Below, in pieces: positions 50,516-51,898 of a stretch of 64,000 nt of DNA. How positions within the stretch are numbered: position 1 is the first letter of the stretch; each line of letters begins with the position of its first letter. A program made the position numbers and the translations under genes. The stretch comes from Escherichia coli (GTDB lineage Bacteria > Pseudomonadota > Gammaproteobacteria > Enterobacterales > Enterobacteriaceae): NCBI RefSeq assembly GCF_003334255.1, contig NZ_QOWU01000005.1. One strand, 5' to 3'. Under the pieces are notes generated by a model that was given only the letters and a program-made list of their open reading frames with translations, was not told where the DNA came from and ran no database searches.

Positions 50516-50995
50516 TCAGTCGATGATGCGCATAATGGCGCTGCATTCCGGATGCTGCAGGGCGTAATCCCGCAACCGGTAATAATGGACCGTCATGGCA
50601 TAATTCTCCGTACGACAGGCATGATGACTGTACGTCATCAGACAGGCGGCAATACCGGCGGCTTCCGGGCTCATTTCTGCGCGGTTACCGTTCATGGCAT
50701 TGAACAGTACCCATGTTTCGTCATCATCGTCATCCGGTTCGGGTGCCATAAATGCCCCGCCGTTGTTCAGGGTGTACAGATTCCAGATACCACCGCAGTA
50801 GTCTTCGCACAGACGGTCCATCCAGCCGAAGACACGGGGCTCCAGGGTCACCCACTGTGGAATGAGGCCAAAATGCTGCGGCCAGAAGCTGATGCGCTGT
50901 TCATCAGGGACGAGGCTGGCAACCAACTGAGGCGGATTATTCTCTGGTGTTGTAGCTGAATAAATTGTGGGGGTATTCTGAGAAACGGTTTTCAT
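50516..50995 (-). CDS. antirestriction protein (KlcA/ArdB-like, YfjX family)
   Basis: 159-aa ORF with acidic stretch EPDDDDDETW; sits immediately upstream of the radC-like gene as in CP4-type islands. Confidence 0.7.
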   Translation of the reverse strand: MKTVSQNTPTIYSATTPENNPPQLVASLVPDEQRISFWPQHFGLIPQWVTLEPRVFGWMDRLCEDYCGGIWNLYTLNNGGAFMAPEPDDDDDETWVLFNAMNGNRAEMSPEAAGIAACLMTYSHHACRTENYAMTVHYYRLRDYALQHPECSAIMRIID

Positions 50996-51076
50996 GAGAT
51001 AACTCCTTAAATAACAAATAAATGTGTGTTTTTCAGGAACGAAAGCTGAATGATTCCCTCACTCAGGGAAACGGCA

Positions 51077-51898
51077 TCAGCGCAGGCTCTCCAGCATCGT
51101 TTCTGCCATCACCCACAATGCGCGATTGAGCTTAATGTCGGTATCAATGCTGTGAATGGCCCGGGTATGGATACGTTTTCCTTTTGCACTGCGACCGGAA
51201 ATCCCGCCTTTCAGCATATTCTCCTGGATGGTCTGATATGCGCTCCACAGGTCCTTACCGTAATCCTCCCGGCGTCGCGGCGTCAGAATGTCGGCGGTGG
51301 TGACGGGCTGATGTTCGTCACCATAACGGTAAGTCAGTGCCGCCTGTGCCAGCGCCTGGCGTGCCGGTGGCGGCAGGACCAGCGACTGCATGGCATCACG
51401 CTTTTCCTCAATCCGGTCAAAAACCCCCACCACTTCGTAAGCCCCTTCGATAACTTTCTCCACCACATTTCCCCGGTGTGGAACACGCACTTCCCCCAGA
51501 GACTGACCGCAGACGCAGCCATTCTGGCAGACGAATCTGAAGTAACCCGGCAGCATCTGGTAGCTGGAGGTACCGTCATGAGAGTTGAGCAGAATAATTT
51601 CAGGGACATGTTCTCCGTTTATCTCTCCGGCCCGCCGCAGACGCAGCATGTGTTTTGTGTATCCCCGGCGGCCCGGGTCGCGCACACGGGTCTGGCAGGC
51701 GAAGAACGGCTGAAAGCCTTCCCGCTGCAGATTTTCCAGGACGGTAATGGTGGGAATGTACGCATACCGTTCACTGCGGGAGGTGTGCCGGTCTTCCCCA
51801 AAAATACTGGGTACATGGCGTATCAGTTCTTCATGTGTCAGCGGACGGTCACGGCGTATCTGGTTTGCAGCATAACCAAAACGACTTGCTAATCGCAT
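51077..51898 (-). CDS. DUF932 protein (YfjQ/YafZ family)
   Basis: 273-aa ORF, length and sequence character as in the YafZ/YfjQ proteins of cryptic prophage islands. Confidence 0.65.
   Translation of the reverse strand: MRLASRFGYAANQIRRDRPLTHEELIRHVPSIFGEDRHTSRSERYAYIPTITVLENLQREGFQPFFACQTRVRDPGRRGYTKHMLRLRRAGEINGEHVPEIILLNSHDGTSSYQMLPGYFRFVCQNGCVCGQSLGEVRVPHRGNVVEKVIEGAYEVVGVFDRIEEKRDAMQSLVLPPPARQALAQAALTYRYGDEHQPVTTADILTPRRREDYGKDLWSAYQTIQENMLKGGISGRSAKGKRIHTRAIHSIDTDIKLNRALWVMAETMLESLR

Follow-up and report, generated by a model that had tools for sequence, protein, structure and literature searches.

The window analysed here, a 64,000-nt segment of an E. coli chromosome in reversed orientation relative to K-12, carries a block of four consecutive genes on the minus strand with no gene intervening: a DUF932 gene, an ArdB/KlcA-type antirestriction gene (ardB), the RadC-like JAB gene yeeS, and the DUF987 gene yeeT (Table 1). 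The grouping of these four as adjacent minus-strand open reading frames (ORFs), proposed in the initial annotation, is borne out by RefSeq, where a genome 99.7% identical to the window has the same four names in succession, followed by cbeA, a frameshifted cbtA, and yeeW. Profile searches likewise uphold the family assignments, all four with strong matches (PF06067, PF03230, PF04002, and PF06174). The interval first given for the group, 50516-51898, contains the antirestriction and DUF932 genes, but the RadC-like gene and yeeT lie beyond it, at 49740-50515. No defence-system model in PADLOC fits any of the four proteins.

Table 1. Features of the island block and its surroundings in the 64,000-nt window
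Feature	Coordinates	Strand	Evidence and remarks
His leader	36634-36757		Within the colanic-acid/O-antigen/his region
tmaR/yeeX	47352-47747		Island border gene
cbtA (yeeV) toxin pseudogene	48836-49209	minus	1-nt deletion; RefSeq "frameshifted"
cbeA (yeeU), type IV antitoxin, intact	49298-49666	minus	121/122 identical to K-12 CbeA; same RefSeq name
yeeT, DUF987 gene	49740-49961	minus	73 aa; PF06174, E 2.2e-39; 100% identical to K-12 YeeT
yeeS, RadC-like JAB (JAMM)	50024-50500	minus	158 aa from the conserved start; PF04002, E 1e-44
ArdB/KlcA antirestriction gene	50516-50995	minus	159 aa; PF03230, E 4.9e-37, model 1-92/92
DUF932 gene	51077-51898	minus	273 aa; PF06067, E 5.6e-52, full length, model 2-227/227
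Intrinsic terminator	51948-51977	minus	13-bp stem followed by a T run; terminator scan
YeeP/YkfA/YfjP-type GTPase gene	57947-58858	minus	NCBIfam GTPase matches; RefSeq "GTPase family protein"; K-12 synteny

The genes of the block have dN/dS values of ~0.06-0.12 against their K-12 paralogues (dS is saturated in these comparisons), and they are therefore constrained coding genes and not chance ORFs. Two long plus-strand ORFs, 50036-50959 and 51050-51892, were considered as genes and rejected: they mirror the real genes, have no RefSeq annotation, and lie opposite frames under strong purifying selection. The intergenic gaps in the block are short, at 15-88 nt, with 81 nt between the DUF932 gene and ardB. 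The antirestriction and RadC-like genes had been described as abutting, and this holds for the longest yeeS ORF (to 50515), in which the TGA of ardB directly precedes an ATG, but not for the homologous start at 50500, which leaves a 15-nt spacer. This second ATG has its own GGAG upstream and is the start used in RefSeq and in the K-12 islands CP4-6 and CP4-57, and the upstream ATG is missing from the CP4-6 and CP4-57 paralogues. We therefore do not regard ardB and yeeS as truly abutting or overlapping, and the true gap is probably 15 nt.

Downstream, yeeT is followed by the cbeA/cbtA antitoxin and toxin pair, in which the cbtA DNA is that of K-12 except for one G missing at K-12 position 221. 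On the upstream side, the DUF932 ATG has an AAGGAG Shine-Dalgarno motif 7 nt to its 5′ side, and the terminator of Table 1 closes the upstream cargo gene ~50 nt ahead of the DUF932 start. The terminator hairpin is the sole stable DNA fold in the 220-nt intergenic region 5′ of DUF932 (z = -1.66). A sigma-70 scan found no convincing promoter upstream of DUF932 or ardB, the number of sites being that expected from shuffled sequence. Since the gaps are short, the strand is shared, and published work treats the CP4-57 paralogues yfjXY-ypjJ-yfjZF as a single operon repressed by MqsA (PMC10846083), the genes probably form a single minus-strand transcript running DUF932-ardB-yeeS-yeeT-cbeA-cbtA(frameshifted)-yeeW.

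The gene run of the window leads from the colanic-acid/O-antigen/his region through sbcB, dacD, sbmC, and yeeA to tmaR/yeeX. The stretch from ~47.8 kb is a minus-strand island located where K-12 has CP4-44, between tmaR/yeeX and cobU, with a gene content that differs from that of K-12. We read its annotation from the RefSeq records of the 99.7%-identical genome, in which the island extends to cobU and contains many IS elements and pseudogenes. Between tmaR and cobU in that genome, no integrase, relaxase, transfer gene, or oriT is annotated, and phage structural, packaging, and P4-type genes are likewise missing from the annotation of the island. There is no tRNA or tmRNA in the 64-kb window. 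The proposal that everything from 47.8 kb onward be treated as mobile thus stands in part: this is an accessory island at the CP4-44 site with content unlike K-12, but genes for an integrase, a relaxase, or transfer are absent from its annotation, and the window has no tRNA. The word mobile fits the origin of the island, not an ability to move now.

The block belongs to a backbone that recurs in E. coli. Of 5426 complete E. coli genomes, 4345 (~80%) carry the 2.16-kb four-gene stretch in one piece (at least 80% coverage), with a median of three locations per genome that are nearly always chromosomal; a multi-copy linkage group was noted earlier (PMC6480617). K-12 CP4-6 and CP4-57 have in common the order GTPase-DUF932-[cargo]-antirestriction-RadC-JAB-DUF987-antitoxin-toxin, and the same order on one strand is found here from the ORFs of the window, the RefSeq names, and the K-12 annotation. 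The block had been called a conserved module of CP4-type islands, and its gene order, as in CP4-6 and CP4-57, confirms this. From the antirestriction gene to the toxin, the window matches lfgABCDE of CP4-57 (yfjX-yfjY-ypjJ-yfjZ-ypjF) and yafX-ykfG-ykfH-yafW-ykfI of CP4-6. In these two islands the first two genes are 8-15 nt apart, the proteins are 63-82% identical to those of the window, and, as in the window, DUF932 and YeeP-type GTPase genes lie upstream.

The three islands differ in where their cargo sits. In K-12, 2-6 kb of cargo separate DUF932 from the antirestriction gene, whereas the window has only the 81-nt spacer there and instead carries its cargo (~6 kb) between the GTPase and DUF932 genes. 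CP4-6 and CP4-57 also have phage-type integrases, whereas the window has a frameshifted toxin and neither an integrase nor a tRNA/tmRNA site; the P4-type integrase with tRNA/tmRNA insertion by which a CP4-type backbone is also recognised is not found. K-12 CP4-44, at the same site beside tmaR/yeeX, is likewise without an integrase, and its yeeS, yeeT, cbeA, yeeW, and yoeF are 99-100% identical to those of the window. In contrast to the window, CP4-44 has an intact cbtA, lacks DUF932 and ardB, and has flu and a truncated yeeR fused to a 5′-truncated yeeS. The K-12-type similarity ends at query position 737, within the 5′ end of yeeS. In CP4-44, a flu-yeeR segment joined within that 5′ end has replaced DUF932 and ardB. 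We take the block to be a further copy of this repeated CP4-type backbone, in a strain other than K-12 and at the site of CP4-44.

Among the four proteins, ArdB is the best understood. It is identical at 144 of 157 positions (91.7%, E = 4.7e-100) to PDB 2WJ9, the crystal structure of ArdB (ORF14) from pathogenicity island II of CFT073 (PMC2836571), and at 129 of 131 positions in the C-terminal domain. The divergence lies in the N-terminal 28 residues, with 11 substitutions and a two-residue indel. It also matches the KlcA structure 2KMG (E = 5.9e-21) and the PHROG family "anti-restriction protein" (E = 1.1e-64) and is 69-71% identical to YfjX/YafX. Like the CFT073 protein, it belongs to PF03230 (the KlcA family), is encoded in a chromosomal island, is acidic (pI 4.66), and retains the C-terminal Asp (last residues ...MRIID). 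CFT073 ArdB, YafX, and YfjX block all four type I restriction families (IA-ID) in vivo but fail to inhibit EcoKI in vitro (PMC2836571), and R64 ArdB inhibits a Bacillus type I enzyme in vitro, for which the C-terminal Asp is required (PMC12429846). The view of the module as anti-defence equipment for evading restriction therefore holds for ArdB, whose activity is known from the 92%-identical CFT073 protein, but less so for the DUF932 and RadC-like proteins, which have no demonstrated anti-defence activity.

YeeS scores 149 bits to the NCBIfam RadC model TIGR00608 (cut-off 133.85) and is 100% identical to K-12 YeeS across the 148 aa of the latter. Its JAMM motif is intact, with EVHPRE at residue 85 and HNHPSGEVTPSKAD (HxHx7Sx2D) at residue 107, and we take it to be a putative JAMM-type zinc metalloprotease that would degrade a host or defence protein. 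It is 78-82% identical to YfjY/YkfG, and the one experimental study of a RadC-like paralogue reports proteolysis of the host antitoxin MqsA by YfjY/LfgB (PMC10846083). In every island copy examined, an ardB-type and a RadC-JAB gene are paired 8-15 nt apart. One idea, which we consider highly improbable, is that the two proteins constitute a two-part antirestriction device in which the metalloprotease supplies the cellular factor that ArdB needs; this factor could be directed proteolysis of a restriction subunit or of another defence protein. If true, it would account for ArdB acting on EcoKI in vivo only. The K-12 hosts used for antirestriction tests already have three RadC-like paralogues: yeeS, ykfG, and yfjY.

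The LfgB report raises the alternative that the block is a domesticated stress-response operon like lfgABCDE of CP4-57, in which a RadC-like protease degrades MqsA and thereby derepresses rpoS, with the antirestriction and establishment functions vestigial. YeeS is 78% identical to YfjY/LfgB, and the latter reportedly degrades MqsA and gives protection from H2O2, acid, and heat (PMC10846083). In addition, the block is intact, under purifying selection, and present in ~80% of E. coli genomes despite the decay of the surrounding island. However, the proposal rests on one study of one paralogue (PMC10846083), the MqsA site of CP4-57 lies ~245 bp upstream of lfgA, a position that in the window is DUF932 coding sequence, and the ArdB proteins of chromosomal islands are active antirestriction proteins (PMC2836571). 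We consider this alternative unlikely, and the distribution of the families on plasmids, described below, is a further point on which it fails to account for the data.

The DUF932 protein is a paralogue of K-12 YfjQ/YafZ (75-76% identical) and is 63% identical to the DUF932 protein of the F plasmid, both being 273 aa long. A search of representatives returned 5384 relatives, and in an alignment with 100 of them at 38-54% identity, P30, C124, N126, H141, and G231 are invariant. The AlphaFold2 model is confident (pLDDT 93.5, pTM 0.89). A Foldseek search of this model against the PDB gave nothing at E ≤ 0.001, and phmmer against PDB sequences gave no meaningful match, so the predicted fold has no characterised relative. 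The protein is basic, has a mass of 31 kDa, and is predicted to adopt a novel fold. The conserved polar residues (His83, Arg86, Arg88, Glu100, Asn105, Cys124, Asn126, and His141), read in their gene context, suggest an enzyme or a nucleic-acid-binding factor acting early after entry. In the literature DUF932 receives incidental mentions only.

Outside the islands, these families are found above all on plasmids. There are at least 5000 plasmid records of DUF932, and among the matches listed, 4439 of 5000 are on conjugative plasmids and the plasmid proteins are 61-63% identical to that of the window. ArdB has relatives in 4989 plasmid records, 3860 of them conjugative, and RadC-JAB in 2334, of which 1649 are conjugative. 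This concentration in plasmid leading regions is left unexplained if the block is regarded as a stress-response operon. The leading regions of F, pAPEC-O2-R, and pKpQIL each include a DUF932 gene, two genes away from oriT; the ArdB/KlcA-like gene is farther in on F and pAPEC-O2-R. Judged by its position downstream of Frpo1 and ygeA, the DUF932 gene of F would be ygeB. Frpo1 is an ssDNA promoter, and the two genes that follow it, ygeA and ygeB, are already expressed when the second strand has yet to be synthesised; they are reported to be critical for conjugation, and a deletion of ygeB alone was not obtainable (PMC9849209). With these F data as a hint, the DUF932 protein may be an uncharacterised enzyme for the early establishment of incoming DNA.

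The F-type leading region (Frpo1-ygeA-ygeB, ssb, psiB, and a klcA/ardB-like gene) shares with the island the DUF932 (63%) and ArdB/KlcA (31%) families, the placement of genes on one strand, and antirestriction function. A DUF905 gene also ties F to K-12 CP4-6 (F DUF905 and YkfF are 58% identical), and none is annotated in the island of the 99.7%-identical genome. There are differences as well. On the plasmids inspected (F, pAPEC-O2-R, and pKpQIL), the DUF932, ArdB, and RadC genes are not adjacent to one another. Plasmid leading-region genes adjoin oriT, and ssDNA hairpin promoters drive their expression (PMC9849209, PMC12672017), whereas the island has no annotated oriT and no such hairpins; the block contains, on one strand, the families enriched in leading regions, but no relaxase or transfer region adjoins it according to the annotation of the 99.7%-identical genome. 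A kinship of YeeW (DUF5983) with the gene beside DUF932 on pKpQIL was considered and dropped, as pairwise comparison gave no real similarity.

We searched for ssDNA promoters by sliding along both strands and taking as the threshold a 300-nt DNA fold below -75 kcal/mol (PMC12672017). None of 641 such segments in the island (47.7-64 kb) forms a hairpin of this Frpo/ssi type on either strand, the minimum being -67.6 in the yeeS coding sequence. The same procedure applied to control plasmids found 28-43 segments below the threshold in pAPEC-O2-R and 2-25 in pKpQIL, including directly upstream of DUF932. The block had been held to be consistent with transfer as single-stranded DNA, and that reading survives only in part: relatives of DUF932, ArdB, and RadC-JAB are mainly on conjugative plasmids, but the island lacks ssDNA-promoter hairpins. 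As far as the sequences tell, the link to conjugative entry is one of gene ancestry and not of present mechanism. The missing ssDNA promoters are also a point in favour of a domesticated stress-response function. Given that it has no annotated integrase or transfer genes, a broken toxin, and no ssDNA promoters, the island is a fixed, vertically inherited remnant, and any role that it has today would consequently be a domesticated one.

Phages are the other conceivable source. The genes could be phage or satellite equipment, left by a P4-like cryptic prophage and guarding injected double-stranded phage DNA rather than conjugative ssDNA. Each of the four proteins has a counterpart among the PHROG families (for example, phrog_12094 at E = 4e-133 and phrog_10132, "anti-restriction protein"). 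Relatives of ArdB turn up in phages of Pseudomonas and Bordetella and those of DUF932 in jumbo phages (38-40% identity), the integrases of K-12 CP4-6 and CP4-57 are of phage type, and the name CP4 itself implies a P4-like prophage. Distant DUF932 relatives are also found in phage-like contigs, including metagenomic ones, beside genes for DNA ligase, 5′-3′ exonuclease, or thymidylate synthase, and others lie beside ParA, ParB, topoisomerase III, and DNA methylase. In six such distant neighbourhoods inspected, there was no ArdB or RadC gene, and we accordingly reject the idea that the DUF932-ArdB-RadC trio is kept beyond enterobacterial islands. Against a phage source, matches in true phages are few and distant (27 for DUF932 and 52 for ArdB among 50,697 records, nearly all below 60% identity) compared with at least 5000 and 4989 plasmid records, respectively. 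Moreover, the island has none of the annotated structural, packaging, or P4-type genes of a phage, and the closest non-island relatives sit beside oriT in F-type leading regions. We find a phage origin very improbable.

We conclude that the block is very probably the remainder of a unit that served to establish and stabilise a mobile island, a copy of the CP4-type backbone. Its gene families are typical of the leading regions of conjugative plasmids and probably served the establishment of the island after entry into the cell. In such a unit, ArdB would neutralise type I restriction endonucleases while sparing modification, as shown for the 92%-identical protein; YeeS, in which the metalloprotease motif is observed, would act on a host or defence protein; the DUF932 protein, from its context, would be an early-acting factor; and the type IV toxin-antitoxin pair would have stabilised the element, its toxin now being inactivated. 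Weighed against this explanation are the strong terminator just upstream of DUF932, the lack of a convincing sigma-70 promoter there or upstream of ardB, the lack of ssDNA-promoter hairpins and of an annotated integrase, relaxase, or oriT, and the distant DUF932 relatives in phage-like contigs without ArdB or RadC. A further point against it is that the LfgB study gives the RadC-like protein a part in host stress and not in anti-defence (PMC10846083). To our knowledge, conjugative transfer has not been demonstrated for any CP4-type island, and this too weighs against it.

The feature is already known, in that its counterparts are published: CFT073 ArdB, the lfg and ykf operons of K-12, the CP4-44 site, and the leading region of F. 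Nothing here is biologically new, since the block is present in ~80% of complete E. coli genomes, ArdB has a structure and in vivo data, and the paralogous operon of K-12 has been studied. The questions that it raises concern the families (DUF932/YgeB, RadC-like proteases, and the action of ArdB) and not this locus. For annotation, the block is useful as confirmation that an accessory island derived from a mobile element lies beyond tmaR/yeeX. For the strain itself, the ardB gene of the window is likely to be an active antirestriction gene and could raise tolerance of unmodified incoming DNA.

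The island segment of 16.3 kb shares 99.7% identity with the best-matching E. coli genomes, one insertion aside. These genomes carry an IS100 element (istA/istB; 28978-30779 of L001, the corresponding locus of a near-identical annotated genome) at the site equivalent to ~61.6 kb of the window, whereas the window lacks it. At the edge of the island, the product of the yoeF-like fragment matches the EutP/PduV family model in its C-terminal part alone (E = 8e-11).

The cbtA toxin gene differs from its K-12 counterpart solely by a single-base deletion, which shifts the frame after codon 73. 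Since cbeA is intact, it is an orphan antitoxin gene in the window.

Features of the island and of related plasmid loci (window coordinates unless a locus is named)
Feature	Location	Strand	Remark
yoeF-like fragment, EutP/PduV-family GTPase	47848-48204	-	island edge, adjoins tmaR
cbtA toxin gene, frameshifted	48836-49209	-	compared with K-12
Long antisense ORF, 307 aa	50036-50959	+	opposite yeeS/ardB
Long antisense ORF, 280 aa	51050-51892	+	opposite DUF932
Strong intrinsic terminator	51948-51977	-	13-bp stem with 8 GC pairs, then T run
Small hypothetical gene	52119-52529	-	between patatin gene and DUF932
Small hypothetical gene	52545-53228	-	between patatin gene and DUF932
Three-gene cargo cluster	53364-57729	-	neighbouring genes overlap by 4 nt each
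Dynamin-family protein, 798 aa	within 53364-57729	-	
RdcB-family protein, 301 aa	within 53364-57729	-	
Patatin-like phospholipase, 356 aa	within 53364-57729	-	
Very stable ssDNA hairpins	L002 9976-10526	 	F-type plasmid, directly before DUF932
Very stable ssDNA hairpins	L003 10401-10926	 	F-type plasmid, directly before DUF932
Very stable ssDNA hairpins	L007 14033-15260	 	F-type plasmid, directly before DUF932

The dynamin, RdcB, and patatin genes lie as cargo between a YeeP-type GTPase gene and DUF932. The dynamin-family protein matches the CrfC/YjdA family profile (E = 1e-166), with a score of 556 bits that falls under the model cut-off of 1146 bits. PADLOC returned only weak matches for the cluster, to LeoBC and phospholipase effectors, and it therefore represents no recognised defence system. 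Neither of the two small genes that follow has a product matching an NCBIfam family; that of the shorter gene has a hydrophobic, signal-like N-terminus (judged by eye) and matches phrog_8968, a PHROG family without known function.

Only ~50 nt separate the terminator from the downstream start codon of DUF932, and we found no recognisable promoter in this interval. Both antisense ORFs are absent from the RefSeq annotation, and purifying selection acts on the frames opposite them; most likely, therefore, these two are mirror ORFs.

Distant relatives of the DUF932 protein (L008, L010, L011-L013, L014-L015, and L019; 38-49% identity) occur in part on phage-like contigs, where the adjoining genes encode DNA ligase, 5'-3' exonuclease, thymidylate synthase, or a DNA polymerase III beta-like protein; others adjoin a ParA-ParB-topoisomerase III-DNA methylase group. 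These gene neighbourhoods hint at a DNA-related role for DUF932. In the leading regions of F-type conjugative plasmids (L002, L003, and L007), DUF932 is preceded by a 95-aa gene as well as by the hairpins, whose 300-nt folds reach free energies as low as -95 kcal/mol. The arrangement of hairpins, 95-aa gene, and DUF932 occupies the same position as Frpo1 (the ssDNA promoter of F), ygeA, and ygeB (PMC9849209), and because of this correspondence the plasmid DUF932 gene is probably among the first to be expressed in the recipient.
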